A DNA stretch of 64,000 bases. Origin: Candidatus Undinarchaeota archaeon (GTDB lineage Archaea > SpSt-1190 > JASMDC01). The position numbers were made by a program, and so were the translations under genes. This document shows, one piece after another, positions 10,551-50,957 of this stretch (positions are counted from its first letter, which is position 1; each line of letters opens with the position of its first letter). The stretch covers positions 64,001-128,000 of the forward strand of contig CAZFHY010000010.1 of assembly GCA_964519305.1 (NCBI GenBank), read 5' to 3'. The notes beneath the pieces are model-generated. The model ran no database searches. It had not been told where the DNA came from and saw nothing but the letters and a program-made list of their open reading frames with translations.

Positions 10551-10638
10551 TGCGAGGTTCACAATGATAAGTTGTTATAAAAAGTTACTTTTCTCCCAAG
10601 CACTTCCCGTCGGAGCGGGAACGAAGGAGTGTCTTGTC

Positions 10639-19319: not shown

Positions 19320-19345
19320 CAAGTTGGCCTCGGCCCCGTACGGCC

Positions 19346-25854: not shown

Positions 25855-25855
25855 C

Positions 25856-26671
25856 TCAGAGCAGTTCCTCGAGCGTTCGCGGCATGTCGTTCAGGAGGTC
25901 GTCCATACTGATGCTCTCCCAGGTCACCCGCTCGGCCACGTAGCCGTAACCGATGCCGTAAGCGTGGTACGACGCGTTCAGGGCCGTTGCGACCGCATCC
26001 ATATCGATCACACCACTGGCCAGCGTCTCGCGTGCGGCCATAAGCTCTCGCACCGCAGGACGTCGATCCCGCTCGCCCCATGCCAGACGCTCCTCGAAGG
26101 CAGTTTCGGCGAACTCGGCCCCTGCGGGTAGCTCCGTGGCGCGCGCCCGGAACATGTTGGTCGCCATGTACTCTGCCTGCCCCTCAAGTGCGGCGAGGAC
26201 AGGTACAGCATCGATGAGGGAGCGGATGTAGTCGCCATGGGTCTCGTCCCGTTGCCGGGCCAGCTCCTTCTGGAGCCCCGCGCCGATGAGCGCGCCGTGG
26301 TTCGCCTGGTAGGCATGGACGAGCTCGTGAGCGAGCACGTACACCAGCTCGCCATCCTGCTCAGGATCAGTGAGGTCCGGTGTTACGACACGGTCCGATA
26401 TGAGCACCCGGTGGTTCAGGTCGTCGTACATACCTTTGTTGCCATGGTAATGTACCGCGGCGTCATGGATGGTCGCCTCATCGGCCTCTACACCCAGGTG
26501 ATCGCAGATATCACGGGCCAATCCTTCATACACGGCAACATCGGCGATGACCACTTCCGGTAGCGGGCCGAAAGCGATCCCGAACTCATCCTCGTAAGCG
26601 GTGACTATGTCATCCATAAGCGAATCGTAGGCATCCACGACAGGACGCCCGTCCCTTTCAATGTCGTACAT
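25856..26671 (-). CDS. Zincin-like metalloprotease
   Basis: VLAHELVHAYQ followed by the EGQAEY third-ligand motif. Confidence 0.72.
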   Translation of the reverse strand: MYDIERDGRPVVDAYDSLMDDIVTAYEDEFGIAFGPLPEVVIADVAVYEGLARDICDHLGVEADEATIHDAAVHYHGNKGMYDDLNHRVLISDRVVTPDLTDPEQDGELVYVLAHELVHAYQANHGALIGAGLQKELARQRDETHGDYIRSLIDAVPVLAALEGQAEYMATNMFRARATELPAGAEFAETAFEERLAWGERDRRPAVRELMAARETLASGVIDMDAVATALNASYHAYGIGYGYVAERVTWESISMDDLLNDMPRTLEELL

Positions 26672-26740: not shown

Positions 26741-28564
26741 TCAGCAGCCCTCGATGCGTGTCACGTACTCGTACCCCTTGCTCGTATGCACGGGGATGAG
26801 CGGATACATCTCAACGGGGACGTTCGTATCGCCCCGTACCCGCACGACTATACCGCGCGACCGCACCTTGTAGGCAGGACGATCGGCCGTGTCGGTCGTG
26901 GCGTGGGCAAGGAGAAGGTACGTACCTGCGTCCACCTCGGGGAACTCGTACTTACCCTCCTCGTCGGCGACCACTGTGACAACGGAGCCCGGGTAGCCGT
27001 CCAAGGGTACCATGTGGAGGCGGACGGCACGGGGCGGCACTCCGTCCACGTAGGCCAGCGTGCGCTCGCCCACTGCTTTCGTACGCCGGTCACCTGAGCA
27101 CGATATCCGGTCCTTGACGAACACGCGGCCGTGCACCCTGCCCTTGTTCCCCAGCTCCACGTCCTTTGTGAGATGGCCGGAGAGCTCTACACGCTCGATG
27201 AGACGACCAAGCCCGGGAGGACTGCTTGCCTCAACGACAAGGGTGTGCTCACCACAGGGTACCTTCGTCCGCTCCAGACGGCCTCCCTCGAATGGATGGA
27301 GACAGGTGTCCAGCCATGCCTGACCGTCAACGGGAGCGTTCCCAGGTCCGGTAACGGTGAGCTCCAGCTCGCATCCGCCGCTCCCGCACAGGTCATCCAC
27401 TGCTGGCGGGTGCTCCTGGCCGAACCGGGCATAAGGATCCACACCGGTTAAGTAGGGGTCGAGCACGAAGGCGAACTCAAGCGGTCGTCCCTCTGTCCGG
27501 ACGCCCATAGCCACCGGTCTGAGGTCCCGCAGGACCATCATAACATTGAACTGGGCGGTATAGCTCACGTTGTACCTGCTCAGGCAGATGGGCTCGTCGG
27601 CATCGCGTCGGTCGATGAACGGGAAAGGGACAGGTACGTATTCCACGTGCTTCGTGCTCTCCTGCTGGGTACCAGGATTGGCCGACAGTGTCATATCGAC
27701 ATGCTCTCGTACCATCTCCATGGACCACTCGATGTCAGGCTCGTCCTTTGCAGCGCTACGCTGTCGCTGAAGCTCCTTTGCTACCGACAGCTGTGCGTTC
27801 TCCACGAAGGGCTGGGCCATGTCGCGCTTAGTGGCGATGATACGCTGTTTGTTGCACGCCATGGTCTCGCCGATGCCACCAGGTGGGCTGGGGATACGGT
27901 CGTCGTTGATGATACCGGAAAGGAGGTTGCGTTCCATGTACCGCTCCTTCTCGTACGTCTCAAGATAGGCCTTGGCCCGGGACCAAAGGGTACGCAGACG
28001 CAGGGGAAGGGTGATGGTCATGTCCTCCACCGAACGGATCGCCTTATCGTCCCCCTGGAGGTGGTAGGTGAGCTCGAGCGTCGCCTCAACCCCCTCCTCC
28101 TGTAGCGTCGCTATGATCCGTGGCGCGCCGAAGACGACCTGGGCCTTCTCGCCCGCGCGGATCGCCTCGAGGCGCGGGACCAAGCGTCGGGTGGACTCCT
28201 GAGAGAGGAGACCCTCCATGACCTGCACCGATGGGAAGAGCACCAAACGGCCCTTCTGAAGATAGACGGGGCGTTTGTTCACCACAGGCCCCGGTAACGA
28301 GTTGGACGTGTAGCCACCGCGCCGTCCCAGCTCGTACACGGACTCCTCCACAGAGTCGCGGAGAGCGCTCTCGATGACGTCAGAAAGGTCGCGTAGGCGG
28401 TCCACGGTCGCCTTCACCTCCCCTGCCGCGGTCCGGGCCTCACGCTCGGTCTTGCTACCGCGCAGGACGAAGGAGACGATCACAAGAACGGCAATGGAGA
28501 TAGCTATGAGGCCGATGAGGCTTATCTGGGCACGCGCACGTTCCCGTACGATCCGGCCGCGCAT
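26741..28564 (-). CDS. Large pilin-like protein with a class III signal peptide
   Basis: MRGRIVRERARA-Q-ISLIGLIAISIAVLVIV (basic leader, AQ junction, hydrophobic N-terminus); ELGRRGGY helix; beta-rich C-terminus. Confidence 0.65.
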   Translation of the reverse strand: MRGRIVRERARAQISLIGLIAISIAVLVIVSFVLRGSKTEREARTAAGEVKATVDRLRDLSDVIESALRDSVEESVYELGRRGGYTSNSLPGPVVNKRPVYLQKGRLVLFPSVQVMEGLLSQESTRRLVPRLEAIRAGEKAQVVFGAPRIIATLQEEGVEATLELTYHLQGDDKAIRSVEDMTITLPLRLRTLWSRAKAYLETYEKERYMERNLLSGIINDDRIPSPPGGIGETMACNKQRIIATKRDMAQPFVENAQLSVAKELQRQRSAAKDEPDIEWSMEMVREHVDMTLSANPGTQQESTKHVEYVPVPFPFIDRRDADEPICLSRYNVSYTAQFNVMMVLRDLRPVAMGVRTEGRPLEFAFVLDPYLTGVDPYARFGQEHPPAVDDLCGSGGCELELTVTGPGNAPVDGQAWLDTCLHPFEGGRLERTKVPCGEHTLVVEASSPPGLGRLIERVELSGHLTKDVELGNKGRVHGRVFVKDRISCSGDRRTKAVGERTLAYVDGVPPRAVRLHMVPLDGYPGSVVTVVADEEGKYEFPEVDAGTYLLLAHATTDTADRPAYKVRSRGIVVRVRGDTNVPVEMYPLIPVHTSKGYEYVTRIEGC

Positions 28565-31401
28565 CAGCAAACCACCCCCTCAAGATTGCGCCAGTTACCC
28601 GGATTACCGGAGAGCTGGACCCGTGTCGTGTCCGAGGTCTCGTCCCCGGTGTTATCGCGGACCGTCACCACCACATCGAGCGGCATGGCATGCTCGGGTG
28701 TCGGACAAAGGCGGATGGCTGACAGGTGGAGACGGACTCCGACACTGGTGCGATAAACGAAAGCGACGGTGTCGCTCACGTCATGCGCACCCACCCTGAC
28801 GGAGAAGCTATCCTTGTCGATCGTCTCTCCGCCCTCGAGGTCCATCAGGACGTCCATATCGAACCCGAGCCCCGCCAGGAGCAGGAATAGTGGCCGCTCC
28901 TTGGTCCCCGGCTCCACGCTCAGGATGCGCATGGACAAGGGGACGTGCTCAAGCACTTCCAGCTGGGTCCGGGCCTGACCGGTCCGTCCGAGGTGGTTCA
29001 CCGCAAGTGTCAGGTGGTCCGCCTCCGTGCTCTCCCCATGGAGGTACACGACAACGGTCCAGGTGCCGGTGTGCCGGTCATAGGTGGCCGAGGTCACGTC
29101 CGCCCGAACTGTACTATCGCCACCGCCCAGGTGCGCGGTCATGGCCGAGACGGGTACGTACGGGATATCCTTGTCACCGGTGTCGGTTATGCGCAGACCG
29201 AGACGCACAGTGGCCCCATGCTCCACCGATGCTCGCGATAACCTGCGCGGTGCCACCGAGATCACCTCGATGTCCATCTCGCTCTGCTCCAGGGGGTACC
29301 ATACCTCGAACGGCCTGCGGACGAGGTGCATATCGTCACCGACATTGAGCATGAGGAACGCGTCGTAACGTCCCGGTGCGAGCGTGTGGTTGAAGGCCGT
29401 GGTGAAGGTCCACTCGTTGACGCTTCCGTCGAAGGAGATTCCTGGCGGAGGCCCGCCCGTGCCGCCCAGGAAGCTAGACGCTTCCAGCTCCTCGTGGACG
29501 CGCTTGTCGGCCACGCGATCGTCCATCTTCACGACCCCGGTCCAGGTCAAGGCCACACCATCGCCCATGTCATTGGTGCGCACGTGGATGGGTTTGAAGT
29601 CCTTGACCTCGAAGGTGAAATCCGGTAGCTGGCATCCGGCGAGAGTGCACACCTGACCCGCGGTACATGGGGAGAGCGCCTGGTCCGACGGATCGAGGCA
29701 CACGCACGTGCCTGAGCAGATCTCGCCCACCTCCACGCACGAGAGGGTCTCCACTCCCCGCTTGGCCACGCAGGCACCGCGGGTCCGGACGACCGTGAAC
29801 GGCGATGTCGAGGCAGAGGGGGATGAACATGCAGTGGCGCTCCCTGGCATCGGGAGGCAGGTGTCCTGATATTCGCACACGTCCCGCGGCATACCGTTCT
29901 CATCGAAGCATAGGCAGAGAGGGAAGGCGGAAGACGTGGGATGGCAGGTCATCCGGGGGCCGATGCATGGGATACTGGTGTCGAGCACGGGAAGGGAGCC
30001 TCCGAAGCAAAGGTCGGAGTGCACGGAATCCTGCCTAGGTCGCCAATCCACAATCTCGAACGTCTTGATACCGGTGGCGACCTTCTCACCACCCTGGTAG
30101 ACCTCCATCTCGACCTCGTACATCCCAGGATCTAGCTCCTCCTCAAGTTCGAGGTCGGCGGGCTCGCAGCCGCCGGAGCTCGTCCGGGTCACGATGTTGC
30201 CATCGCTGTCGGTGATAGTGACTTCGCACAGCTCACCTTCTCCGGTGGGGAACACGGCGAGGTTCTCTCCCGGCGAGTACACATCCTTGTCCGTCGTGAT
30301 CTCGACAGTCCCCTCTCCCGTCTCGGCGAAGGTGAACGTTGCTGTACCCGTGCTCGTCGAATCGCCCCGGGTGGCACGTGCGCGGACCAGGTAGTCGCCG
30401 GGGACCAGCCCGGCCGTGCCCAACCGGACATTGTCGCACGAGGCGAGGTCGAGCTCATCCCATCGATGCCCCTCCAGGTCGAGCACGGTAACCTCGCACC
30501 GGTCTACATCACCATCGACGGACAGGTCGACCTCGAAGGACGAACCGGTGACCGTGGTACTGCCGACGTCCACTGAGACCGTCAGGTCCGCACGGGTGGA
30601 TTCCAGAGGTGTGCGCGCGGTGGATATCCGGGGCAGGTCGCCCCATGTGTCAATCGCGATCAATACCAGCTCGGCCCCTTCCTCGACAAGGAGCCCTGTC
30701 GTCGGGAGCACGAAGGGATCACAGGCCGGTGAGACCGCGCTCAGCGCAGGGCGCGCCTCTCCCGATTGCATGATGGCGGCGATGCAGAGCGATCCCTGGA
30801 GACGGGGGATGTTGAACGCGTCGCCGATGACGAGCGCACCAGCGAGCTCCTTTACTGAGGAAGGGATGTCCAGCGGGTTGTTCTTGCCTGATACAGTGAA
30901 GGTGGAGAGGGTGGGCGAATCGCGCACGTCCTCGACGACCGCGCGGTAGGCCGGATAGCGGATCGAGAGCTCGCGTTTCTGAGCAAGCATCCCGGGAGCG
31001 AGGGTGAACTGTCGGGACCGGTACTCGTGGGAGAGCCGGACGCGGACACCATCTTCGCCCCATACGTCCTCCCAGCCGATCTCCTCGATGCCGAAGGCTG
31101 GCTCATCGTTCACCGTGAAGATGATCCTGCCCGTTGAAGTATCACGCCAGGGTTTGCAGTCCGCAGCCGGAGCAGCGATACGGCACCGCGTCTGCAGGTC
31201 GGCGTCCGTCAGTGCAGCAGCTGCGGTCGGCTCGAGGTTGAAGGTGATGATGGCGGTCTGTCCATCGAGCGACGCGAAGTCCACTTCCTCCGTCACCGAT
31301 GAGGAGATGATGGCCATCACAGGCACGGATACGAGCAGGAGCGTAACGAGCAGTGGAAGGAAAGGGAAATTCATCCGGTCCTTCTTCGCAGGAGGCACCA
31401 T
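28564..31401 (-). CDS. Large secreted Ig-like / Cys-rich protein
   Basis: Start ATG 31401 fits the TTTTATAA box at about 31427-31434; Sec-type signal; TTDKDVYSPGE Ig-like motif; central Cys-rich block. Confidence 0.75.
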   Translation of the reverse strand: MVPPAKKDRMNFPFLPLLVTLLLVSVPVMAIISSSVTEEVDFASLDGQTAIITFNLEPTAAAALTDADLQTRCRIAAPAADCKPWRDTSTGRIIFTVNDEPAFGIEEIGWEDVWGEDGVRVRLSHEYRSRQFTLAPGMLAQKRELSIRYPAYRAVVEDVRDSPTLSTFTVSGKNNPLDIPSSVKELAGALVIGDAFNIPRLQGSLCIAAIMQSGEARPALSAVSPACDPFVLPTTGLLVEEGAELVLIAIDTWGDLPRISTARTPLESTRADLTVSVDVGSTTVTGSSFEVDLSVDGDVDRCEVTVLDLEGHRWDELDLASCDNVRLGTAGLVPGDYLVRARATRGDSTSTGTATFTFAETGEGTVEITTDKDVYSPGENLAVFPTGEGELCEVTITDSDGNIVTRTSSGGCEPADLELEEELDPGMYEVEMEVYQGGEKVATGIKTFEIVDWRPRQDSVHSDLCFGGSLPVLDTSIPCIGPRMTCHPTSSAFPLCLCFDENGMPRDVCEYQDTCLPMPGSATACSSPSASTSPFTVVRTRGACVAKRGVETLSCVEVGEICSGTCVCLDPSDQALSPCTAGQVCTLAGCQLPDFTFEVKDFKPIHVRTNDMGDGVALTWTGVVKMDDRVADKRVHEELEASSFLGGTGGPPPGISFDGSVNEWTFTTAFNHTLAPGRYDAFLMLNVGDDMHLVRRPFEVWYPLEQSEMDIEVISVAPRRLSRASVEHGATVRLGLRITDTGDKDIPYVPVSAMTAHLGGGDSTVRADVTSATYDRHTGTWTVVVYLHGESTEADHLTLAVNHLGRTGQARTQLEVLEHVPLSMRILSVEPGTKERPLFLLLAGLGFDMDVLMDLEGGETIDKDSFSVRVGAHDVSDTVAFVYRTSVGVRLHLSAIRLCPTPEHAMPLDVVVTVRDNTGDETSDTTRVQLSGNPGNWRNLEGVVC

Positions 31402-31500
31402 CCGCCCATCACCACCGCGCATTCCTTTATAAAACGAAGGAGAGAGAACGCACGTCGGCCCCCCCTCTCCGTGTCCCCCTTCATCGTTAACCATTCATCA

Positions 31501-34500
31501 TTACCTCCGTGTTGTGCATGTGCACTCGCACTTGTCGGTCACGAGAGTGCAGCTCTCGGGCTCGATGGTGAGCGTACAGGTCGGCAGACAGGCGTCGCAC
31601 GATACCTCCAGGTAGCAGTCGCCCACGGTGAAGGACGCGTCGATGGGCTGGCGCGGACCCTCGCCCTCCCAGACACCTTCTTCGAGCTCCAGGCGGGAGT
31701 AAGGATGGGCCGTCGAGTCCATATCCTCATCCAGCCAGGTCGTGCCGTCCCTATCACGGACAATGACGTGGAGGCCCATGGTGCTGCCACCGGGCGGATC
31801 GTTGAACGCTCCGAAGACCGGGCCCTGGAGGGCGAAGACATCGTTGTGCTCAAGGCCGGTGACGTCCTGCGTGACACGGGAATTGGTGACCTCACGCCCG
31901 TCGGCCAGCTGCGCCCATGCCTCGATCGTGCCCGCGAACATCGTACTCGCGGAATTCTCCACGGTCACCTCGAACGTGACGGGCTCACGGACAGCGGCAG
32001 CGTCCATGGCCATACCATCGCTGTCCAGGAACGCGGCCTTGGTCACCCTGGCCCGTCCCTCCTTGACCTCGATGTGTCCCTGTGGGAACTCGGGAACTGC
32101 CCGTTCCCGCTCATACAGACACCCGGCCGTCATCTCCGGACCCGTGCAGCTGTCATGATCGAATCCCTTCTCGGGCAGGACCATGTCCAGGACCGGCTGG
32201 CCATCGCTGTCGAGCAGACGGACGCCGATCTGGAGCGGCCAGCCAAGATGGTCTTCTGTCAGGGCGACCGGCTCGGTCATGAGCTCGATGTGCTCACCGG
32301 TCCCGTTGAGTACGGTCACGGTCCTGCTCCCGGCGAGCTCCTGCCCTGCTCCGAGCACTGCGTAGACCTCTGCCGTAACGGGCGCCTTTGTGTTGGAGAT
32401 ACGGACTCGACCTGCCACCTCCATCCCGGGGTTGCCCTCAGAGATAGGGGTCCCGAGTTCAGCATCCACGAACGAGCCATGGACGACCGCTGCGTCACCG
32501 ATCTCGACAATATGAGATAGCACCCCGTCGGCCCAGGCCACGCCCTCACCTTCGGTGTCCAGGACGTCGATCTCGAGCTGGATTGTAGTGCCTGACAGCC
32601 CGTGTTCGAGCGTGAACGGGTCAGAGAGGTAGTCCCAGGACTCACCGGGTGGTAGCAGTGGCATGCGGATAGCGCCTAGTTCGATGAATCCCTCCTCGCA
32701 CGTACAGGGGCAGGAACCGCCCCCGGTGCAAGCAGAGCAGTCGCACTCCCCAATGACGCGGAGCCGTGCGTTCGCACGGCCTAGTTCGAAGGTGCCATCG
32801 CCAGTGTTCTCCACCTCTGCGTACACTCGGACGAGGTCTCCTGCATGGAAGGTGCGGACCGCGGTCGGGTTCACCCGGAGTATGTTGAGGGTGGGTATCT
32901 TGAGCCACGATGGGACCATCTTCCGTATGAATTCCATTGGCCTCGGGGCGGGTCTGTTACGGGGGGCCGTACTGCTGCCCGGGGAGCTGTCGGGCTTCGT
33001 ACCACCACCCGAGCTCCCACTGCTGGACGACGAGGGCCTCCCCCCCCTACGGTATTGCCTCCTACGGTCACCCACCCCTCGTGGCGTTGAGTACCGGAAG
33101 CACTGGTCCATGTTCAAGAACAGCTTGTTAGGATCCAGTCGGGCAAGGTTGCCCAGTGCCATCCGTTGCCCCTTGGCCCAGGTGTCGGTCTCCCGGACCT
33201 GGAGCTGTGCACCACCCTTCAGTTCGGACTCGCACCGGCCCGGAGGTTTCCCGCATCCGGCCTTCGGTGCGTCCTTGACGATCCTCTGGACGGTCTGCTT
33301 GACCTGCTGGGGGGACTTGCCTCCACTGCTGCTGCCTGCCTGCTTGTCCTTCCCCTCGTCCTTGAGGTTGAACCTGCCGCAGTACTTGGACCACTCCTTG
33401 TCACCCCGGTAACCAACCGTGGCGACCATCAGGCCACGGGCCTTGCGCACGTGTTCAGCGGCCTGGTCCAGGGTGGCCGCATGGGCAGGGGCCATGCCGA
33501 GCCGCTTCTGGAGCCAGCCGCCAGCGGCCTGCATGCGCTGTCCCCAGCCGCCTCCACCGATGCCCCCGCCCACGTCGCGTGCCATGGGACCCTTGGTGAG
33601 GGTCACCAGCTTGGTTATGTCGGTCTGGAACGCGGCGAGCCCGGCACCGTCCTTGGCGTTCGCCGAGGCCGTGTTCACCAGGGCGTCGATGCGGCTCTGA
33701 GCCCCGGCCACGGGTTGCCCTGTCCGCATGGCCGTCCCGACGTCGCCGGCCACGCCCCTGAGCCCGGAGCTCACTGGACCGAGGTTCCCGGTGAGCCCGT
33801 CGAGCTTCCCGCGGTCAGAGGACACACGCTGCTGGAGGCTGCAGGGATCGAGGGTGGCGCCACCCAGGGAGGCGGACCCGTCCACGGTGCAGGCGTCCTT
33901 GACGTCGGCGAGCGCCTGCTGGCAGGCCGCGAGCATTGCAGGGACGGTGATGACCGTGCGCGAGGGCGCGGTGACCAGCGTCGCCTTGGGCTGACTGCAC
34001 GACTTGTCCTTCCCGCGTCCTGCCTTGCACGTGTGGACGCCATCCTTTCGCTCGACCTTCGTGACCTCGCCGCAGCCCTTGGAGGCGTCGCACTTCTCGC
34101 CCGAGGAGGACGGCCCCCCGACCTCGCACGCGTCGGCATAAGCGCACGGCACGACCGCGCAGAGCGGGCACTTCGCCGCGTTCTTCTCGGCCTCCCCCGG
34201 CGGTGGCGGGGTGGCCGCAGACGAGCCTGTGTCGCTCGGATATGACCCTTTCCCGGCCGTCATCGGATTGGGCTTCCCGCCCATCTCGCGGCAGGCGCGT
34301 TCGAGCCGTTCCGCGATGAGCTCGGGGTAGCGCGGGCCCATCCCTTTCTTCCTGCAATAGTAGTTGGCGTTGTTCCACCTAGTGCCGGGGCCGTAGTAGT
34401 GGACGCACGACGCCATCATGGCATCGTACAGCCCCATGCCACGCTTCCGGTTACTGATGGCCCGGGTCATGGCGCTGCCCCCGCGGTTGAACCCGAACTC

Positions 34501-35457
34501 CACGAGGGCCAGCGCCTCGCTGGGTGACGCGCCGAGCTTCTGGGCCTTGTCCAGCTGGTGCCGCAACTCCTTCATCCCGAGGTCGATGCCGATCCTTGCG
34601 TTCCCCTTGCACTTGCAGTACAGCGGATGGCCCTTCTGCACCCGACACGGGTAGTCCACCTGCATGATGCCACCGCAGTTCGCACTGGGATTGCACGTCG
34701 ACTCCTGCATCATGAGCGCGGTCGCCTGGAGGGGGTCGACGCGCCCTGCGAGGCCGTGCTTGGCCAGATGCTCCTTGACGAGCCCGAGGTACGGTGCACA
34801 CCTCCCAAGGCTGGTCTGGGGCAGCTTGCTCAGGTCGCCGCCCTCGCAGCTAGGAAGCTCGCCCTTGCCCTCATTCTGATCTCCCCCCTCGTCCTTCTTC
34901 TCGTCACCCTTGCACGTCTTGAGATCCTTGCGCTCGCACGTCTGCTTGACAGCGCGGTCGCACACGGTAGGACCGAACCCCGTATCCGCGGCCACCTTGG
35001 CTGCCGTGAGACCGGCGAGGGCCGGGTCACAGCCATCGAGCCCCAGCGCCTTCACCTTCTGGAGGGCGGCCTGGCATCCCTGGCACTGCTTGGCGAACCC
35101 CGCCTCTATCAGAGCGAGGTTGCCTGAGAGCGCTTTATAGTGCCCCGCCATCTTGTCGATCGCCCCTGCCATGTCATTGAGGTATCCGGGCATGTTCCGG
35201 TAGGTCCGCCCGCACTGGACGTTCAGGTCAGAGACGGACATTGGGCCCGGGCCGGCACCAGGGTCACCGGGCGCTTTCCCGGAAACATCGGCGCGTGTGA
35301 ACTCCCCGCTCCCACTGTCGGCATTCTTCAACGAGCCCTGCTCGTGGCCGTCAGTGATATCCTTGCGCGTCTGGCCGGCCGCTGTGACGAACGGTAGGAG
35401 CGCGATGACAAGTAGGAGCGTCAGGAGCACTGCTGCGCGACGCTCGCGGACCGCCAT
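31501..35457 (-). CDS. Giant secreted Cys-rich protein with a lytic transglycosylase (SLT-like) domain and a C-terminal Ig/CARDB-like region
   Basis: Signal peptide; ALMMQES..N..CGGIMQV..FGFNRG; paralogous to 35461-41103. Confidence 0.78.
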   Translation of the reverse strand: MAVRERRAAVLLTLLLVIALLPFVTAAGQTRKDITDGHEQGSLKNADSGSGEFTRADVSGKAPGDPGAGPGPMSVSDLNVQCGRTYRNMPGYLNDMAGAIDKMAGHYKALSGNLALIEAGFAKQCQGCQAALQKVKALGLDGCDPALAGLTAAKVAADTGFGPTVCDRAVKQTCERKDLKTCKGDEKKDEGGDQNEGKGELPSCEGGDLSKLPQTSLGRCAPYLGLVKEHLAKHGLAGRVDPLQATALMMQESTCNPSANCGGIMQVDYPCRVQKGHPLYCKCKGNARIGIDLGMKELRHQLDKAQKLGASPSEALALVEFGFNRGGSAMTRAISNRKRGMGLYDAMMASCVHYYGPGTRWNNANYYCRKKGMGPRYPELIAERLERACREMGGKPNPMTAGKGSYPSDTGSSAATPPPPGEAEKNAAKCPLCAVVPCAYADACEVGGPSSSGEKCDASKGCGEVTKVERKDGVHTCKAGRGKDKSCSQPKATLVTAPSRTVITVPAMLAACQQALADVKDACTVDGSASLGGATLDPCSLQQRVSSDRGKLDGLTGNLGPVSSGLRGVAGDVGTAMRTGQPVAGAQSRIDALVNTASANAKDGAGLAAFQTDITKLVTLTKGPMARDVGGGIGGGGWGQRMQAAGGWLQKRLGMAPAHAATLDQAAEHVRKARGLMVATVGYRGDKEWSKYCGRFNLKDEGKDKQAGSSSGGKSPQQVKQTVQRIVKDAPKAGCGKPPGRCESELKGGAQLQVRETDTWAKGQRMALGNLARLDPNKLFLNMDQCFRYSTPRGVGDRRRQYRRGGRPSSSSSGSSGGGTKPDSSPGSSTAPRNRPAPRPMEFIRKMVPSWLKIPTLNILRVNPTAVRTFHAGDLVRVYAEVENTGDGTFELGRANARLRVIGECDCSACTGGGSCPCTCEEGFIELGAIRMPLLPPGESWDYLSDPFTLEHGLSGTTIQLEIDVLDTEGEGVAWADGVLSHIVEIGDAAVVHGSFVDAELGTPISEGNPGMEVAGRVRISNTKAPVTAEVYAVLGAGQELAGSRTVTVLNGTGEHIELMTEPVALTEDHLGWPLQIGVRLLDSDGQPVLDMVLPEKGFDHDSCTGPEMTAGCLYERERAVPEFPQGHIEVKEGRARVTKAAFLDSDGMAMDAAAVREPVTFEVTVENSASTMFAGTIEAWAQLADGREVTNSRVTQDVTGLEHNDVFALQGPVFGAFNDPPGGSTMGLHVIVRDRDGTTWLDEDMDSTAHPYSRLELEEGVWEGEGPRQPIDASFTVGDCYLEVSCDACLPTCTLTIEPESCTLVTDKCECTCTTRR

Positions 35458-35460
35458 CGA

Positions 35461-38400
35461 TCATCCTCTCCGTGGTGCACAAGTGCATCCGCACGAACGT
35501 GTCTCGATAGTACAATCGTCGTTGTCGATATGGAGCTCGCAGGTGGGAAGACAGCCCTCGCACACGACCTCGATCCGGCATCCGCCCATGTCGAACGTGG
35601 CGTCTATGGTCTGACGCGCAGCGTCCTCGAGCTCGATCTTCTCTCCCATAGTGACCCAGGCATTAGGGTAGAGCGAGGGATCTGCATCATCGTCGAGCCA
35701 TAGGGCGCCGTCCCCGTCCGTGGCGGTGACGTGCAGCCCCATCGCGTTACCTCTTCCGGTATCCCCGAACGCGCCGAACACCGACGAGCGGAGCTTGATG
35801 GTACCCCCTCGTTCCAGCTCAGTGACGTCCTCTCGCACGTGTCCGCCGACGACGTTCATGCCATACTCGAGCCGTGAGGCTGCCTCGATGCTCCCGGAGA
35901 ACGGGACGTGGGCGAGGTTCCTGACATCGATCTCGAACGACACGGGCTGGCGCAGTACCGCCGTGGTGATGGGCTGGCCGTCAGCGTCGCGGTACACCGC
36001 TTCGGCGATCCTCAGACGGGGCCGCTTCACCTCGAGGTAGGCCAGGGGATAGCCGAGCTTGACGCGGGAGCGCTCCTGGACGCACCAAGAGGTCATGAGG
36101 CGTCCTGTGCACCTCTCCGGATCGAATCCCTGCTCGTCTAAGATCATGTCCAGGAGTAGGTCGCCGGCCCCGTCGGTGACACGGACGCCTATATGGAGGA
36201 CCCAGCCGAGCTGGTCTTCCATTAGCTGGAACGGCGCGGTCTCCACCACTAGTTCCTCACCAGGTGCATCGATCGTCCTTGTCGCGTGCGTTCCCGCCAG
36301 CTCCTGTGATGCACCGATGACCGCGTATGTTTCCACCGATATCGGGAACACCTTGGTCGTCACGACCAGTCGGCCGACGACCTGCATCCCGGGATTGCCG
36401 TCGGTCACCTCCTCGTCACGGTCCGTGGCCACGAATGCACCATGGGTGATGCTCACCTCGCCCATTTCGACTACGTGCGTCAGCGGTCCGGCGGCAGTGG
36501 CGACACCCTCGCCCTCATCATCGAACACTTCCAGCTGGAGCTGTACGGTGGCGTTGGCCATCCCCGGATCTAGGAGGATGGGATCGGAGATATACGCCCA
36601 TGAGTCACCAGGGGCCAGCGGACGGATGGGGATGTCCCGCAGCTCGATGATCTGCTCCTCGCACTCGCATCCGCACTCGTACGACTCGGGGCATGTCGGA
36701 CAGTCGCACTCACCGATGATCCTGAGCTGTGCCTTCGCGCGTCCCGTGAAGGGATAATCTCCGGTGTTGTTGACCACAGCACGGATCCTGACGCTCTCGT
36801 TGGCATAGAAGGTCAGGGACTCCTCGTCGTCGCGGAGGAGAGCGACGTCTGACACGACGACCTCGGAAGCAGTGGCCTTGCAGAGCTTAGCGCACTCCTT
36901 CTCGTTCCCGCCCGAGCTCGTGCAGTTTTCCATGCACGCGATGGTGGCGTTGGCCGGATCGCATCCCTTGAAGCAACGATCACGGCCGTCCCTGTCGTTC
37001 GGGAATCGCACGTTGCAGTCGGTCACGCACGCAGGATCCCTCCCGCACTCGACGAGGCAGTCATGCTGGATATCTAGGTCGTCCTCGCCCAGGCATCGCT
37101 CCTCGCAGGCGACCTGCACCTCGTCGCACTTCCGCATACATGTCCGTGCGTCGCCCGAGCTGGTCCCGAACTTGATGATGCACCCCTCCTCGCAGACTAT
37201 GTCAGCCCCTCCGTCACCAAGGCCCACGCACGCTTCCAGACAGGGGCGGAGAAGGACAGGATCAGGCCGCTCTCGTGCGCACGTGTCCTCACACGTCGAG
37301 TTGCTGGGATCACATTCGCGCATGCAGTCAAGGGCCACACTGACATCGTTCTCGGAAAGGCAGTCCTGTTTGCACTCGATACTATCGTTGAGCTCCTCCT
37401 CGGGCTCGGGTGTCGGTGTCGGCATCACCGAGGGCGAGGGGGAAGGTGTGACCGTAGCGTTGGGTGTCGGGCTGGGAGTGACCGTGGCGTTGGGTGTAGG
37501 CGAGGGTGTCGGGGACGGCGTTGGTGTGGGGGTTGCCGTGACGTTCCCCATGTTGCACTTCTTGATGCACTCACGTGCTGCTGTGCTGTTATCCTTGTGC
37601 TGGTCCAGACACGCCTCATCGCACGGCACCTCACGCGGCTCGCACTCGATCTTGCCCACAGGACGCTCGGCAAGCCCCTCAAGGCAGCATAGTCCGGTTT
37701 CGGACGTCCTCCCGACGCAAACGTCGTAGGTCATGCCCGCGGCCCTTATAGGCGTCTGACAAACGCTCGCTCCGCTCGTGGGCCCGGAGGGGGCATTATA
37801 GGATGGCGGCGGGAGCGTTCCTGTCCCAGGCTGGCCTGCAGCACCTCCCATCCCCTCCGGTGCACAGCACTCCCTGGCCAGCTCAAGCGCCTCCTGTCCC
37901 CAGTTTATTGGACAGTTCATGTCGATGGGGTGGTGACCGCTCCCGGTATGGCAAACGCACAGGCTGAGCTCGGGGTGACAGTGGGAGCCTTTCGCTCCGA
38001 AACATAGCTGGCACGCCTCCTGACACTGTCCCGGGGACAGCTGTGATTCATCCGGAGGTGTCGGCGGGCGATGGGTCTTGTATCTGAAGCAGTCCTGCAT
38101 GTCCATGAAGAGCGTGTCCGGGTCCAGGCGGGCAAGGTTCCGGAGCGCTGCGACGTGCCCGGACGGCCACGAGTCGACGTTCAGGTCCAGCAGCTCCGCA
38201 CCGTCCACCAGCTCGGACTCGCACCGGCCCGGTGCTTGGCCGTACCCGGCGACAGGTGCATCGCTGGTGATACGTCGTGACAGCTGGCGGAGTTCGGGTA
38301 CCTGCTTGCTCCCACCGGACGATGTGGACGTACCGCCGCTCGCTCGCTCCTTCGCCACAGCGGTCCGGTTCTTGACGCTGTACCGCCCGCAGAAGCCGTC

Positions 38401-41103
38401 CCATGGACCTGACCCACGGTAACCCATCCGCGCGCTCTGGAGCTCACTCTTGACGACTATCCCGATGTCCTCGCGTGACGCATCCTGGCCGGTCGTACTG
38501 TCGCTGACATCGTACCGTCGCCACGAGCTGGAAACCGGGGATGAGCTGCCGGTCGTGGGGCCTGCGTTGGCGTCAGTGTACCCTATCGCATCGCTGTTAC
38601 CTGGTGTCCTAGGACTGGCAACGTCGCGGATGATTGGGTCCCCGGTGAGGGTGACGAGGGTGGTGAGCTCGTACTGGAACGTTGTGACCGGCGTGTTGGC
38701 GCCCGCTTCCAGCGTCCCGACCAGGTCGTTCACGTGCTGCTCGAGCTCGGGCGGCGGGGCACCGGTCCGCATGGAACCGCGCACGTCGCTGGCGAGCGTG
38801 CGCAGTTGTCGTGCGAGCACCGTCATCATCTGCGTCCGCTGGTCGAGGGCCGCCATGTTCTTACCAATAATCTCTGCCAGCGAGCAGGGATCGAGCACAC
38901 GCTCCCCGATGACGTCGGACCCTCCGGCGGAGCACGCGTCATGGAGGTCCGCCATGGCACGCTGACATGCCACGAGCACGGACGGTAGGGTGATGGTCGC
39001 CCGGGAGGAGAGGGTGCGCAGGGTCGCGTTCGCGATGTCGCAGTCGCCCTTGCACTTCGAGGGGCAGGTCGCATCCTTGCGGATGCAGCAGTCGCCCTGC
39101 TCCCCGGGCTTGACGACGCACTTGTAGTTGCCTGTTTTGTCGTCCTTCTCCGCCCGCAGGACCTCACCGCACGTGTCCTTCGTGTCGAGGGTCCCGCCCT
39201 CCCCGGGATTGCCGATCCTGCATTCCATCCCGTACGAGCAGGGCACCGCCGCGCAGAGCGGGCACGTCACCGACTCGTCGACGCTCTTGGCCTTTGTTAT
39301 CTTGTGGACAGGACCGCTCGTGCCATGGGTCGCCGGGCCGCCATGAGCTGGTGTCCCCCCTATCTGCCGGCAGGCCTCTTCGAACCGCTCCTGGATGATC
39401 TCCGGGTAGCGGGGACCGTGACCCTTCTTCCGACAGTAGTAGTCGGCATCGTTCCACTTGGTTCCCGGGCCGTAGTACTTCTCGCAGGACCGCATCATGG
39501 CGTCGTAGGTCGACGCACCGCCCTTGCTGTACCCGATGGCGCTCTCCATGGCGCCCATGCCGCGATTGTACCCGAACTGGACGAATGTGAGCGCATCCGA
39601 CTGGGACGCTCCCATCGACTGTGCCTTGTTGAGGTTGGCCGCCAGCTCCTTGAGCCCCAGGTCGATGCCCAGGTCCGCGTTGCCCTTGCACGCGCAGTAT
39701 AGCGGTGACGATTTTTCCACCCGGCACGGGTAGTCCACCTGCATGATGCCACCGCAGTTCACGCTCGGGTTGCAGCTGGACTCCTGCATCATCAATGCGG
39801 CTACCTGGAGCGGGTCGATGCGACCGTGGAGGCCGTGCTTGCCCATGTACTTGTCGACGATGTCCATATAGGGAGCGCAGGCCCCGAGGCTGGTCGAACC
39901 GAGCTTGCTCATGTCACCGCCCTGACATCCATAGGCACCACTGGCCTCTTCCGAGCCGTCGTCACCAGTACTTTCACCCGAACTATCCGCGCCTCCACTG
40001 AAGAACATGTCCCTGATCTCCAATGGGTCCATGTACTGCCCGGGCCCCTGGGGACGGGCTATGAGGATGCCGAAGTGTAGGTGAGGGACCTTGTTGCCCA
40101 GACCGACGGTCCCCACGTTCGTCCCCTTTGTGACATGCCTGCCACCGCTCCCATCGGGGACGTGGAACGCCAGGCTCTTCATATGGGTGTACCATGCGAA
40201 ATAGTACGTCTTCCCCTTGTTCTTGATGGGCTTGTCGAACTTGAGGAGGATGCTGTTGGGCGTGTCCGGGGGCGTGGTCCATGTCGTATGGCCGCGCTCG
40301 CTGTAGATGAGCGTACCATCAGCGACGGCATAGGCGGGGGTGCCTGCATGGACGTGGATGTCGATGCCCCGATGCGCCCCTGGGGCACCGTACGTCTTCC
40401 ACTGGGATTGGCTCGTCCCCTTTATGGGCATATGGAGGTCGCCACTTGAGCCCTGGCCGCCTGAGGGTGACTGCTGCTCGCTCCCGGTGGTGTCACTTCC
40501 ACTTCCATCGCCATCACCCTCGCTCGCGCTATCGTCCTCCTCGATCTCCCGCTCGTCGTCAGGACGGCACTCCTTGAGCCCCTTCACCTCGCACTTGGCC
40601 TGCGTCACCATATGGCAGAGCGCAGGGCCGACCCCCTCGCCCGCGACCTGTGCGGCAGTGAGCCCCTCGCCACCAAGACGCGGATCGCACTCACCAAGCC
40701 CGAGCCCCTTCACCTGCTGGATCGCCTTCTGGCACACGAGGCACTGCTGGACGAACCCGTCCTGGGCGATGAGCATGTTAGTTGAAATCGTCCTGTAATG
40801 CCAGGCCATCTGCTCGTACGCGGACGCCATGGCATCAAGGTAATCGGCCATGTTATCGAACACTTGGCCCGTACAGGGGATTGCGAGGTTGGAGATTGGC
40901 GGACCGGCGGCCCCGGAGCCGCCGATGCCATCGAGGTTGAGGCCGCCGATCTCGCTGGTGGAAACCTCCTCGTTACCCGCCGTGACGTTCGTGAGCTCCC
41001 CCTGCTCATGTCCGTCCTCTACCTCGAGGCTCGTGACCGAAAGGGCGGGTGTGATGAGTAGGAGGACTATAATGAACGCATACAGTGCCTTTGTTTCACC
41101 CAT
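35461..41103 (-). CDS. Giant secreted protein with M23 peptidase, SLT-like domain, PT linker, CxxxC repeats and Ig/CARDB-like C-terminus
   Basis: Signal peptide; M23 HRGID..GTPAYAVADG..YTHM..HLHFG; ALMMQES..GIMQV..YNRG; start ATG 41103 or GTG 41112. Confidence 0.82.
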   Translation of the reverse strand: MGETKALYAFIIVLLLITPALSVTSLEVEDGHEQGELTNVTAGNEEVSTSEIGGLNLDGIGGSGAAGPPISNLAIPCTGQVFDNMADYLDAMASAYEQMAWHYRTISTNMLIAQDGFVQQCLVCQKAIQQVKGLGLGECDPRLGGEGLTAAQVAGEGVGPALCHMVTQAKCEVKGLKECRPDDEREIEEDDSASEGDGDGSGSDTTGSEQQSPSGGQGSSGDLHMPIKGTSQSQWKTYGAPGAHRGIDIHVHAGTPAYAVADGTLIYSERGHTTWTTPPDTPNSILLKFDKPIKNKGKTYYFAWYTHMKSLAFHVPDGSGGRHVTKGTNVGTVGLGNKVPHLHFGILIARPQGPGQYMDPLEIRDMFFSGGADSSGESTGDDGSEEASGAYGCQGGDMSKLGSTSLGACAPYMDIVDKYMGKHGLHGRIDPLQVAALMMQESSCNPSVNCGGIMQVDYPCRVEKSSPLYCACKGNADLGIDLGLKELAANLNKAQSMGASQSDALTFVQFGYNRGMGAMESAIGYSKGGASTYDAMMRSCEKYYGPGTKWNDADYYCRKKGHGPRYPEIIQERFEEACRQIGGTPAHGGPATHGTSGPVHKITKAKSVDESVTCPLCAAVPCSYGMECRIGNPGEGGTLDTKDTCGEVLRAEKDDKTGNYKCVVKPGEQGDCCIRKDATCPSKCKGDCDIANATLRTLSSRATITLPSVLVACQRAMADLHDACSAGGSDVIGERVLDPCSLAEIIGKNMAALDQRTQMMTVLARQLRTLASDVRGSMRTGAPPPELEQHVNDLVGTLEAGANTPVTTFQYELTTLVTLTGDPIIRDVASPRTPGNSDAIGYTDANAGPTTGSSSPVSSSWRRYDVSDSTTGQDASREDIGIVVKSELQSARMGYRGSGPWDGFCGRYSVKNRTAVAKERASGGTSTSSGGSKQVPELRQLSRRITSDAPVAGYGQAPGRCESELVDGAELLDLNVDSWPSGHVAALRNLARLDPDTLFMDMQDCFRYKTHRPPTPPDESQLSPGQCQEACQLCFGAKGSHCHPELSLCVCHTGSGHHPIDMNCPINWGQEALELARECCAPEGMGGAAGQPGTGTLPPPSYNAPSGPTSGASVCQTPIRAAGMTYDVCVGRTSETGLCCLEGLAERPVGKIECEPREVPCDEACLDQHKDNSTAARECIKKCNMGNVTATPTPTPSPTPSPTPNATVTPSPTPNATVTPSPSPSVMPTPTPEPEEELNDSIECKQDCLSENDVSVALDCMRECDPSNSTCEDTCARERPDPVLLRPCLEACVGLGDGGADIVCEEGCIIKFGTSSGDARTCMRKCDEVQVACEERCLGEDDLDIQHDCLVECGRDPACVTDCNVRFPNDRDGRDRCFKGCDPANATIACMENCTSSGGNEKECAKLCKATASEVVVSDVALLRDDEESLTFYANESVRIRAVVNNTGDYPFTGRAKAQLRIIGECDCPTCPESYECGCECEEQIIELRDIPIRPLAPGDSWAYISDPILLDPGMANATVQLQLEVFDDEGEGVATAAGPLTHVVEMGEVSITHGAFVATDRDEEVTDGNPGMQVVGRLVVTTKVFPISVETYAVIGASQELAGTHATRTIDAPGEELVVETAPFQLMEDQLGWVLHIGVRVTDGAGDLLLDMILDEQGFDPERCTGRLMTSWCVQERSRVKLGYPLAYLEVKRPRLRIAEAVYRDADGQPITTAVLRQPVSFEIDVRNLAHVPFSGSIEAASRLEYGMNVVGGHVREDVTELERGGTIKLRSSVFGAFGDTGRGNAMGLHVTATDGDGALWLDDDADPSLYPNAWVTMGEKIELEDAARQTIDATFDMGGCRIEVVCEGCLPTCELHIDNDDCTIETRSCGCTCAPRRG
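36880..37630 (-). repeat. Tandem C-x3-C-x(8-12)-C-x3-C repeats and a Pro/Thr linker in the 1883-aa protein
   Basis: About 8 units (CDEAC..CIKKC, CKQDC..CMREC, CEDTC..CLEAC, etc.); TPTPSPTPNAT repeats at about 37400-37545. Confidence 0.8.
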
Positions 41104-41128
41104 TTTCACCACGCTTCCAGTACACTAT

Positions 41129-41147
41129 GTCACTACTTACTAGTGAC
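41129..41147. promoter_or_regulatory. Inverted repeat GTCACTA-N5-TAGTGAC, candidate operator
   Basis: Perfect 7-bp arms between the TATATATA box (41173-41180) and the giant gene start; near-copy at 56111-56129. Confidence 0.5.
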
Positions 41148-41298
41148 TGTTACTATATTATCTGTCGTTTCCTATATATACGGCTTTCGGTACCGTCATG
41201 TTCGAACAGGTGATCAGTCCCCGTACTACACCTATTCCTATCACTTGACAGCCCATAACCGGGCTATCTTTAAACACCTACTGCGTCGGGCCAAGGCC

Positions 41299-42813
41299 TC
41301 ACTGTGATGGTGGAGAGACACCGTTCATCAGGTAGAAGAACAGGAGCATCTCATAGAGCGCCTGGTTCTCAGTGCTCGAGGGATGGTTCTCATCGGCCAT
41401 GGTGTCGTGGAACTCGTCCCAGCGGGTGTCGCGGGCAAAGGGCGTCGCCTTGTATGCCGATGTGGCCTTATCGAACTCCTCCTGCATCCTTGGCAGGTAG
41501 ATGTGGAGCCCGTGGGCGCGCTCGTGGAACTCGCTGTTCCTGTTGTCGAGAACAGCATCCTCAACGGTGGTGAGCACGTCCTTGGCGGTCGCTCGTACGG
41601 CACCTTCGATGTTACCGTTGGCCACGATCTTGTGTGCGAGATCATAGACGTCGACCATGGAAGTGCCGCCGAAGTACGTGTTCGTCAGCTGGTGTGTAGC
41701 GAAGAATACTTCCTTGAGCTCGGTGTACGGCGTATCGTACTCGATGATGGCCCCTGCCATCCGGTCGATGGCCTCGGCCACGGCGGGCATCTTCTCGATG
41801 TCGATTGCCGACATGGTACTGACACCGTCCTTCTCCGATGCGACCTCGTCCACTACGAGAAGGGCCATCTGACGGGGCGTGAGCTCCGTTCCAGCGGTTT
41901 GCTTCTCCATCATGATGAGTGACGCCTCGTTGAGCAGGCCCTCGTAGTCCCAACCCCCTGCATTGATGACCGACTCACTGGCGACCATGTAGCGAGCCAC
42001 ACCGCGGACGGCGTAGGCGCCTTCCGTGGAGGCCATGAGGCATGCATCGAAGCCCAGAACGTCGATCTTCTCGCCCGTGGTCCGCTGGACGGAGGTGAGC
42101 GCTTGTCGGATGCCCTCCCAGCTCAGGGGTCCTGAATCCGCCGACTGGTCGTCAATGACACCCAACCATCCTGCACCATGGTCGGCGATGATGAGCATGT
42201 AGTTCTCGGCAGGGTAGTTCTTCACACCCCAGGAGACGAAGTCATAGAGGGTCTTCGGGCTGGCCATGTCGACCTGTCCGAGCTCGCCCAGCACCGGCGA
42301 TGTGACGATATCATCCTTACCCTCCTTCTGGATGAGGTAGCGTCGGGCCCCGCTCCAGGAGTCGCCTTCGTTCGTGGTGATGTTGTTGCCACGGTCGTAC
42401 TGTACAACGACGTTCATCTGGTCCGTGGAACCGACGGCCTCCATCTCGTCGATGTTCTGATACATATGGGTCGAGAGGTTGTTGTCGGCGGCGGAGTAGA
42501 CGAGGACCGTCCACGGCTTCTCTTGGGCGATGCGCTCGCGCTGCCCAGGAACACCCGCCATCTCGGTCGGCAGGGATACCTGATAGCCGTCGATGTTGAA
42601 CTGTGAACCTTGCTCCAGGGAGGTGTACGAGCCCTGCTCGAGCACGTAGGCGGGCCGTTCGGACATCCTGCCTGATGTAATGAGATCATCGATGGCCCCC
42701 GTAGGTGGTGCTATATCTGATGCAAGACCCATGCCTCCGTAGAGGAGGCCGAGCCCCAAGCTAGCGACCCTTTGTGCCGTCCGTCCGATATCATGATTAG
42801 CATCGTTCTCCAT
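41299..42813 (-). CDS. Clostripain-family (C11) cysteine peptidase 1
   Basis: WTVLVYSAADNNL, DHGAGW (His), GFDACLM (Cys), VASE; start ATG 42813 after an AAGGTGA RBS. Confidence 0.9.
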   Translation of the reverse strand: MENDANHDIGRTAQRVASLGLGLLYGGMGLASDIAPPTGAIDDLITSGRMSERPAYVLEQGSYTSLEQGSQFNIDGYQVSLPTEMAGVPGQRERIAQEKPWTVLVYSAADNNLSTHMYQNIDEMEAVGSTDQMNVVVQYDRGNNITTNEGDSWSGARRYLIQKEGKDDIVTSPVLGELGQVDMASPKTLYDFVSWGVKNYPAENYMLIIADHGAGWLGVIDDQSADSGPLSWEGIRQALTSVQRTTGEKIDVLGFDACLMASTEGAYAVRGVARYMVASESVINAGGWDYEGLLNEASLIMMEKQTAGTELTPRQMALLVVDEVASEKDGVSTMSAIDIEKMPAVAEAIDRMAGAIIEYDTPYTELKEVFFATHQLTNTYFGGTSMVDVYDLAHKIVANGNIEGAVRATAKDVLTTVEDAVLDNRNSEFHERAHGLHIYLPRMQEEFDKATSAYKATPFARDTRWDEFHDTMADENHPSSTENQALYEMLLFFYLMNGVSPPSQ

Positions 42814-42979
42814 GGTTGTCACCTTCAGTTCTTGTTCACGTTCAGCAAGTTCTCTACGAACCGTGCTGCCTCTGAAACGGCAGCGATACCGCTGTAGAGA
42901 ATACCTAGCCCGATAATCTTGGAGCGTCGCCCCGTCAACTTTGGACAATACATTTCTACGCGCTTCATGGCCGTCACCT

Positions 42980-48037: not shown

Positions 48038-48045
48038 TATCCCTC

Positions 48046-50956: not shown

Positions 50957-50957
50957 C

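Follow-up and report, generated by a model that had tools for sequence, protein, structure and literature searches.

Two adjoining open reading frames (ORFs), A and B, were examined in a 64,000-nucleotide stretch (the window) of contig CAZFHY010000010.1 (positions 64,001 to 128,000) from the genome of a Candidatus Undinarchaeota archaeon (GCA_964519305.1, here G000). Both lie on the minus strand, 3 nt apart, and each combines a conserved cysteine-rich scaffold with inserted cassettes of peptidoglycan-hydrolase type; two further genes, X and Y, lie downstream (Table 1). The original prediction, made from the sequence alone, had described A and B as paralogues sharing a cysteine scaffold. This was borne out: both ORFs were recovered, BLASTP aligned them in three collinear blocks (39% identity at the N-terminus, E 1e-30; 44%, E 2e-154; 44% at the C-terminus, E 1e-124) and all the motifs named lay within a few bases of the positions given for them. 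In A and B, respectively, these are DGHEQG (41016 and 35352), QES (39786 and 34707), CPLCA (39264 and 34170), RCESEL (38226 and 33237), L[RG]NLARLDP (38145 and 33156) and CLPTC (35553 and 31590), with the M23 motifs HRGID (40374) and HLHF (40083) in A.

Table 1. Features of the A/B locus in the window, with the other hydrolase carriers of the genome
Feature	Position	Strand	Remarks
Scaffold protein A	35461..41112	minus	1883 aa if read from GTG, 1880 aa from the probable start, ATG 41103; signal peptide, helical core, M23 and SLT cassettes, cysteine mini-domains, Pro/Thr stalk, three Ig-like (immunoglobulin-like) domains, 8-Cys terminal domain
Scaffold protein B	31501..35457	minus	1318 aa; scaffold of A with SLT only, lacking the central cysteine-rich stalk
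AT-rich intergenic stretch	41113..41298	minus	TATA-like box at about 41172-41180, by eye
First helical block of scaffold core	A 40564..40899; B 34909-35244	minus	
M23 metallopeptidase cassette of A	40000..40440	minus	PF01551, 42 bits against a cut-off of 28.7, E 1.1e-10
SLT/GH23 lysozyme-fold cassette of A	39343..39936	minus	candidate catalytic E444 (39781-39783); 10 Cys
SLT/GH23 cassette of B	34264..34857	minus	66% identical to that of A; candidate catalytic E252 (34702-34704)
CPLC block, second helical block, LDP block	A 38077..39279; B 33082-34185	minus	
Cysteine mini-domains (SHCH, SETG), Pro/Thr repeat, cysteine-rich helical repeats	36871..38025	minus	A only
Three Ig-like (CARDB-like) domains	A 35638..36882; B 31675-32925	minus	from model of paralogue C9 and fold search
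Terminal 8-cysteine beta domain	A 35464..35634; B 31504-31671	minus	
Partner X	28564..31494	minus	976 aa ORF, probable start near 31371-31398; secreted, Ig-rich, cysteine block
Partner Y	26741..28570	minus	609 aa; R[GA]/Q class III (type IV pilin-type) signal
Hydrolase carriers			A, M23+SLT; B, SLT; C19, M23+SLT; C12, SLT+M23+NlpC/P60; C6 and C10a, NlpC/P60
Hydrolase carrier C10b	L020:9218-15265		GH73-like + M23 + degenerate NlpC/P60

The length predicted for A is that of the ORF, but translation probably begins at the internal ATG, behind an AT-rich stretch whose TATA-like box was read by eye and which is the probable promoter of A-B-X-Y. In the model of a paralogue, the first helical block and the CPLC, second helical and LDP blocks together form a helical core. 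M23 and SLT were both present in A as predicted, the former above its Pfam cut-off. B had been described as differing in carrying SLT only; the SLT domain is present and M23 is missing, but B also lacks about 570 further residues of A (the cysteine mini-domains, Pro/Thr repeat and cysteine-rich helical repeats). The linkers around the cassettes, expected to be Gly/Ser, are 24-57% Gly+Ser, but contain up to 41% Asp+Glu or 30% Pro+Thr.

In all four marine runs examined, assembly contigs covered every one of the 30 bins and no differences were listed. The A/B junction was bridged by one contig in three runs, and the B/X junction by one; the runs are possible sources of this DNA and therefore do not give independent assembly support. 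The run contigs broke only at a 36-base repeat common to both SLT regions (34646-34681 and about 39725-39760), which falls in the active-site region, lies within a 211-base repeat of 76% identity and is a possible recombination point. A misassembled duplication was rejected as the source of A and B, which are 44% identical with saturated fourfold sites. In the congeneric genome G001, the orthologue of A (76% identical and collinear) is followed directly by X, and B was not found, having probably been lost. Since B is equally distant from A and from the G001 orthologue of A, the A/B duplication is old.

In the M23 cassette the zinc motifs H(x)nD and HxH are intact (H247, 40372-40374; D251, 40360-40362; H344, 40081-40083; H346, 40075-40077) and an additional His occurs in WYTH. 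Active M23 domains are defined by these two motifs together with an extra His about 30 residues before HxH (PMC9662197). Comparison with the PDB gave weak matches to LytM. Relatives were few, with nine matches, five on scaffolds and four in small unlabelled proteins. An M23 subtype with D-[ST]-G-x-D in place of the H-R-G-I-D of A was seen in paralogue C19 (L024:2210-2650) and in entries P0025-P0029, and Asp took the place of the first zinc His in all relatives outside the orthologues of A.

The SLT domains of A and B share the motifs QES, GGIMQV, FG[YF]NRG (FGYNRG in A) and YPE. The motif set of family 1 SLT/GH23 enzymes comprises ES, GLMQ, an AYNAG-like motif and a terminal Tyr. The Glu of QES was invariant in all five aligned copies. 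Against PF01464 (cut-off 21.3) A scored 16.6 bits and B was not listed, B having no Pfam match of any kind, whereas C19 (27.2) and the G001 orthologue of A (21.9) passed. A model built from five SLT sequences reached a pLDDT (predicted local distance difference test) of 93. In a wide structural search its first match was 4hpe (Z 13.5, root-mean-square deviation (rmsd) 3.5 Å, 151 aligned), followed by MltF, LtgA, MltE (Z 12.2), MltC and Slt70, and the top ten matches were all transglycosylases or a g-type lysozyme (Z 13.5-9.6). The lysozyme fold that had been predicted was thus recovered, and on this model the SLT segment is a lysozyme/GH23 fold of the SLT/g-type class. As a putative glycosidase it may be a lyase or a hydrolase; both fit, since muramidase-type and chitinase members of GH23 are among the best fold matches. 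Cleavage of peptidoglycan by the two cassettes is predicted from their folds and catalytic motifs. The expectation that they would cut both bond types leaves out the amide bond, and no amidase was found in G000 or G001.

A search with the SLT alignment recovered 24 longer proteins. All seven with an organism label were archaeal, several proteins carried amidase, GH73 or NlpC/P60 domains, and the labels among SLT relatives included Woesearchaeota, Pacearchaeota, Diapherotrites and Micrarchaeota. Scaffold blocks were present in only five of the 24 (P0001-P0004 and P0006), and in a tree of 26 rows the scaffold-borne copies formed one branch of the SLT subfamily (support 99/95). Judged by sequence, this SLT type is a DPANN-wide subfamily in which the scaffold-borne copies are one branch. 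In a related record, syntenic with the locus, the SLT domain is 83% identical. Another archaeon, G030 (L026:1-6554), has the same SLT type fused to NlpC/P60 and what we take to be a two-helix membrane segment; three adjoining proteins share this segment, one of them with a presumed 3D-like domain. In G005 (L044:4915-8523), a small-genome member of the class, a 1203-aa frame had M23 and weak SLT matches and no scaffold blocks.

A and B are paralogues as predicted but not a lone pair, being two of the 27 members of a family here called Z. The tblastn and profile searches recovered 20 and then 22 full paralogues in G000, and 27 ORFs including divergent ones; an iterated helical profile recovered 26 of the ORFs. 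They are spread over 13 contigs, and their conserved blocks keep a constant order. The smallest full paralogue, C9 (1037 residues), was modelled from 37 sequences as a proxy for A and B (pLDDT 78; pTM, predicted template modelling score, 0.38). In the model, a helical bundle at the N-terminus is followed by small disulfide domains, three beta sandwiches and, at the end of the chain, a further beta domain. The sandwiches matched generic Ig folds. CARDB (3idu) was among these (Z 9.5, rmsd 2.6 Å, 96 aligned), with many Ig matches equal to it, and the CARDB family PF07705 had no Pfam match in A or B, so that for the predicted Ig/CARDB-like domains the model upholds the Ig fold, with CARDB as one match among equals. 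Whole-protein searches were dominated by the Ig domains. Residues 30-381, the helical core, matched only generic four-helix bundles (Z 9.7 and lower), and the ESM Atlas gave no usable match for the core, only SLT-type leads under 0.9; on the model, these searches do not demonstrate a novel fold.

An N-terminal hydrophobic segment was present in all 27 Z proteins and a C-terminal one in none, which suggests that all are secreted with a signal peptide and have no membrane anchor of their own. A 960-position Z profile searched against 1.84 billion representatives gave 43 matches, 35 of them at E<=1e-10. Most were paralogues from this lineage, and several weak rows were unrelated CARDB proteins. 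Six distant homologues of unlabelled origin (P0039, P0042-P0045 and P0052) were 23-34% identical. Among 401 archaeal genomes searched, Z was matched only in G000 and G001, and a metagenome scan for the locus found two loci, both near-identical to that of G001. Literature searches, whose coverage excluded subscription journals and supplements, returned no description of the scaffold. From its sequences, Z appears to be a lineage-specific family of secreted carriers. In G000 as a whole, 118 open frames reach at least 1,000 aa, many of them cysteine-rich, and the largest has 8,378 aa.

The original prediction of variable hydrolase-type cassettes on a conserved scaffold was supported by homologues with other cassettes at other positions, and the survey of inserted domains that it had proposed yielded NlpC/P60, GH73-like, C39-like, lectin, FG-GAP and TSP3 domains. 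In a Pfam scan of 26 of the 27 Z proteins (paralogue C11 was left out, and one sequence was short by 49 residues), wall-hydrolase-type domains occurred on seven, which together held 13 of the 14 such domains of the genome. By type, Z proteins carried four of the five M23 domains, all four NlpC/P60 domains, all four copies of this SLT type and the single GH73-like domain, which scored below the Pfam cut-off. The other Z proteins had FG-GAP, C-type lectin or TSP3 repeats, or long inserts without a match. Six cargo slots were distinguished. One precedes the first helical block, and another, used in A and B, follows it; two are internal to the second helical block and to the LDP block, respectively; a fifth comes ahead of the SETG block; and the sixth, occupied by the SLT domain of C19, interrupts the second Ig domain.

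Several comparisons bear on the movement of cassettes between scaffolds. The SLT domain of C12 is 53-56% identical to the other copies, against only 22-34% for its scaffold blocks, and three NlpC/P60 domains in three different slots are 56% identical. In trees of the last 470 residues (31 rows, and 16 rows without C19 and others), A, B, C19, P0006 and P0025 formed one clade (100/100). Approximately unbiased (AU) tests on the 16-row tree rejected a single clade of NlpC/P60 carriers (p 4e-66) and of SLT carriers (p 0.007); the groups tested were set by cargo, but the test was run after the first tree had been seen, and C12 is a long branch. Since the trees reject a single origin for either set of carriers, the cassettes have moved. 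Dating the transfers by synonymous sites was uninformative, every comparison being near saturation. Among outside homologues, P0006 has SLT and NlpC/P60, and P0025 has M23 and, in the cassette slot, a C39-like peptidase; the contig recorded for each of them measures 12,107 bases, and the two are probably one A/B-like pair. The GH73-like block of C10b in G000 is missing from its G001 orthologue.

The genes downstream of B recur with the family. G000 contains 22 copies of X and 21 full copies of Y, nearly always adjacent, and 17 of the 27 Z genes, including the A/B locus, belong to a run of Z, X and Y genes or are no more than about 2 kb away from one. Z, X and Y together make up 7.1% of the genome. 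Between the window and the C19 loci, X was 61%, Y 63% and Z 42-51% identical, a likeness across all three from which we infer that they were duplicated together. The R[GA]/Q pattern followed by a hydrophobic stretch was matched in 19 of the 21 Y proteins, as in the other class III or pilin-like proteins of the genome. Y was matched in two of 17 genomes of the class, and a search with X gave six close relatives among 7,990 scored candidates, which is weak evidence on the range of X. Six type IV filament ATPases exceeded the cut-off in the genome, and a T2SSF pair lies about 8 kb from one X-Y pair; no type IV filament assembly gene was found in the window. At L050:1045-10170, a type IV filament ATPase, a TadC-like membrane gene, X and Y form one run. 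A TATA-like sequence, TTTTATAAA, occurs between B and X (window about 31375-31500) and is absent from the relative in which A abuts X; X may have its own promoter there. Two variants of the arrangement were also seen: a Z gene (C1:22048; L012:49-7965) with an internal Y-like domain (aa 357-737), kept in G001, and a minimal trio (L055:5774-10921) of Y, a shortened X and a Z of 433 aa that is reduced to the helical core.

G000 is 3.63 Mb in 42 contigs (99.8% complete), and the congeneric G001 is 3.8 Mb; genomes in the remaining 15 members of the class measure 0.6-1.2 Mb. The lineage is Undinarchaeales, within DPANN. All eight runs listed as containing this DNA were marine or seawater metagenomes from two studies, all possible sources, and no RNA dataset was listed. 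DPANN genomes of 4 Mb, possibly free-living, have been reported from oxygen-deficient zones, with a murein transglycosylase in three metagenome-assembled genomes (PMC10936187), and G000 appears to belong to this group. Mur ligase domains were found in neither G000 nor G001, with positive controls; neither murein nor pseudomurein of its own is therefore expected, and hence no substrate in its own wall. Bacterial contamination and phage origin were both rejected. The neighbours in class and domain have small genomes of archaeal type, the paralogues occupy many contigs, window genes matched TrmB-type and archaeal N-glycosylase families, and none of 145 candidate stretches from viral contigs was related to the SLT domain.

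In our preferred reading, which we consider to have an even chance of being correct, A and B are secreted carriers of the Z family, displayed on the cell surface through X and the pilin-like Y, and used to attack or attach to bacteria. The computed architecture, family size, cassette mobility, folds, catalytic motifs, gene linkage and lack of a detected Mur ligase form its basis, and from them we infer the secretion route, the binding of Z to X and Y, the pilus location, the activity, the target and the lifestyle. The constant part of Z (helical core, disulfide-rich spacers, three Ig-like domains and terminal cysteine domain) would present cargo at the cell surface, with enzyme or binding modules inserted into its loops and gained, lost or moved between copies. 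Z would be exported and would fold with many disulfides. Because it has no membrane anchor of its own, its hold on a type IV pilus or pseudopilus would most likely depend on X and Y, which are encoded alongside it. When the cell meets a bacterium, SLT would cut the glycan strand and M23, or NlpC/P60 in other copies, the peptide cross-links, and the opened wall would allow the archaeon to attach, feed or kill. Targets would be recognised by copies with lectin, FG-GAP or other inserts. The reading is favoured by the occurrence of four unrelated wall-hydrolase folds (M23, SLT, NlpC/P60 and GH73-like) on one scaffold family, and by the fusion elsewhere in DPANN of the same SLT type to amidase, GH73 or NlpC/P60.

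Several observations weigh against it. LysM, PG_binding_1, amidase and AnmK were not found in G000 or G001, so that neither a known wall-binding module nor a salvage step for anhydro-muropeptides supports feeding on the products. The TadC-like gene had no Pfam match, its label being a reading of the sequence by eye. Ten of the 27 Z genes, including four of the seven hydrolase carriers, have no adjacent X-Y. This would also be expected if Z were released into the medium or onto particles, where it would digest bacterial wall debris or kill neighbours at a distance, the linkage to X and Y then reflecting shared regulation or help with export. Release agrees with the signal peptide and missing anchor in every Z protein, and secreted archaeal hydrolases that kill bacteria have been described (PMC12352652). 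However, the carriers are disulfide-rich proteins of 1,300-2,800 residues, costly for diffusion, no wall-binding domain was found that would keep them on their substrate, and Z, X and Y were duplicated together and have close copy numbers (27, 22 and 21). We therefore think release unlikely.

Only seven of the 26 scanned Z proteins carry a recognisable wall hydrolase, which would make the scaffold a general display device. The NlpC/P60 domain of C10b has Gly for the catalytic Cys and Asn for the second His, and in the closest relatives of the M23 domain of A the first zinc His is replaced by Asp. If the family were an adhesin or coat system, its hydrolase folds would for the most part bind peptidoglycan, or make small local cuts for anchoring, and leave the bacterial partner unharmed. 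This could account for such degenerate domains and for the non-enzymatic or unmatched inserts (lectin, FG-GAP, TSP3) of most Z proteins; degenerate M23 folds do act as binding hubs (PMC9662197). Yet both zinc motifs, HxxxD and HxH, are complete in the M23 domain of A, the Glu of SLT does not vary among the five aligned copies, three of the four NlpC/P60 domains of the genome keep Cys and His, and glycan- and peptide-cutting domains in one chain exceed the needs of binding, so that we judge this explanation to be quite improbable.

For the SLT fold, Foldseek gave no match at E<=0.001 (best 0.017, though with probability of about 1.0 for transglycosylases and g-type lysozymes), and the structural list also holds a GH124 cellulase (Z 9.0) and a Ralstonia chitinase (Z 8.9). 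The latter two, with the C39-like peptidase that P0025 carries in the same slot, could point to substrates other than peptidoglycan, GH23 cutting chitin or an archaeal glycan and the peptidases remodelling surface proteins of the archaeon itself. Both entries nevertheless rank below ten transglycosylase or lysozyme entries, the four unrelated folds brought together on one scaffold have peptidoglycan as their common known substrate, and in other DPANN amidases are fused to this SLT type. Such substrates seem very unlikely. Surface display against bacteria, our preferred reading, has a bolder extension that we offer tentatively and regard as doubtful. In it, this large-genome DPANN archaeon would be a contact-dependent predator or parasite of bacteria, and about 7% of its genome would be a combinatorial pilus-tip arsenal (Y as anchor, X as adaptor, Z as carrier) built on a new helical-core scaffold that takes folded enzyme modules at no fewer than six loops, shuffled among about 27 copies to match different walls.

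The remaining neighbours of the locus include a zinc-metalloprotease-like gene (four copies in the genome) and a DUF1838 gene after Y (25051-26671). In the relative, Y is followed directly by SecA; in the window, a bacterial-type SecA above the TIGR00963 cut-off lies at 16857-19322, and it is kept in the relative, two genes from Y. Six clostripain-family (C11) protease paralogues, 40-44% identical, occur directly upstream of A (41299-42948 and 46490-53932); maturation of the secreted giants is a possible role for them. A complete Rnf-type operon with ApbE was found at 5471-11625.

Known systems resemble parts of this one. CwlT combines a glycosidase and a peptidase in one chain, as A is predicted to do. 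The best SLT fold matches were CwlT-type bifunctional hydrolases (PDB 4hpe and 4fdy), E. coli MltE and MltC and P. aeruginosa MltF, but at 15-20% identity, and the cassette here, with its 10 cysteines, is of a DPANN-wide subfamily. Large transglycosylase (SLT) proteins secreted by DPANN have been proposed to act on bacterial walls and to mark episymbionts of bacteria (PMC8204110); like the proteins here, these are large, secreted, from DPANN and equipped with SLT. The SLT relatives in other DPANN have no scaffold block, whereas here a 27-copy, X-Y-linked scaffold in a 3.6-Mb genome bears several mobile cassettes, of which SLT is one. Archaeal modular peptidoglycan hydrolases with a zoocin A-like M23 domain kill bacteria, in a survey that demanded a known wall-binding domain (PMC12352652). 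They share with Z an archaeal secreted M23, replacement of catalytic domains and a patchy distribution. No wall-binding domain appeared in the Pfam scans of A and B, nor LysM or PG_binding_1 in the two genomes, and Z proteins are far larger, with several catalytic folds on a lineage-specific carrier.

In Myxococcus, the interchangeable minor-pilin Tips of the Kil Tad pilus serve predation (PMC12075869). They offer a model of how Z might work, as paralogous pilin-linked complexes that expose variable domains toward bacterial prey. The likeness is one of model only, with no sequence or fold relation seen; the N-terminus of Z is Sec-type and not pilin-type, there are 21-27 variants here against four, and the pilus association is suggested by Y only. 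The giant predation proteins of Omnitrophota (Archaeovorins) occasionally have SLT and C39 domains, occur near type II/IV secretion genes and are proposed to attach to prey and digest its wall (bioRxiv 10.1101/2023.11.21.568195). Those are bacterial, membrane-associated single chains of at least 10,000 residues, whereas Z is an archaeal multigene family of 1-3 thousand residues in which the direction of attack would be reversed. In its proposed working, the Z system is like a blend of DPANN transglycosylases, archaeal M23 killers, pilus tips and Omnitrophota giants, but it is a member of none of these.

Surveys that require a known wall-binding domain or a Pfam SLT match would overlook Z proteins such as B. 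The cassettes are small expressible modules of 150-200 residues, and the scaffold, which tolerates insertions even inside an Ig domain, is a natural chassis for domain display. Whether there are DPANN archaea that live on bacteria has been described as an open question (PMC8204110). That nearly all the wall-cutting domains of this genome lie on one predicted secreted family is a reason to look for bacterial hosts or prey.

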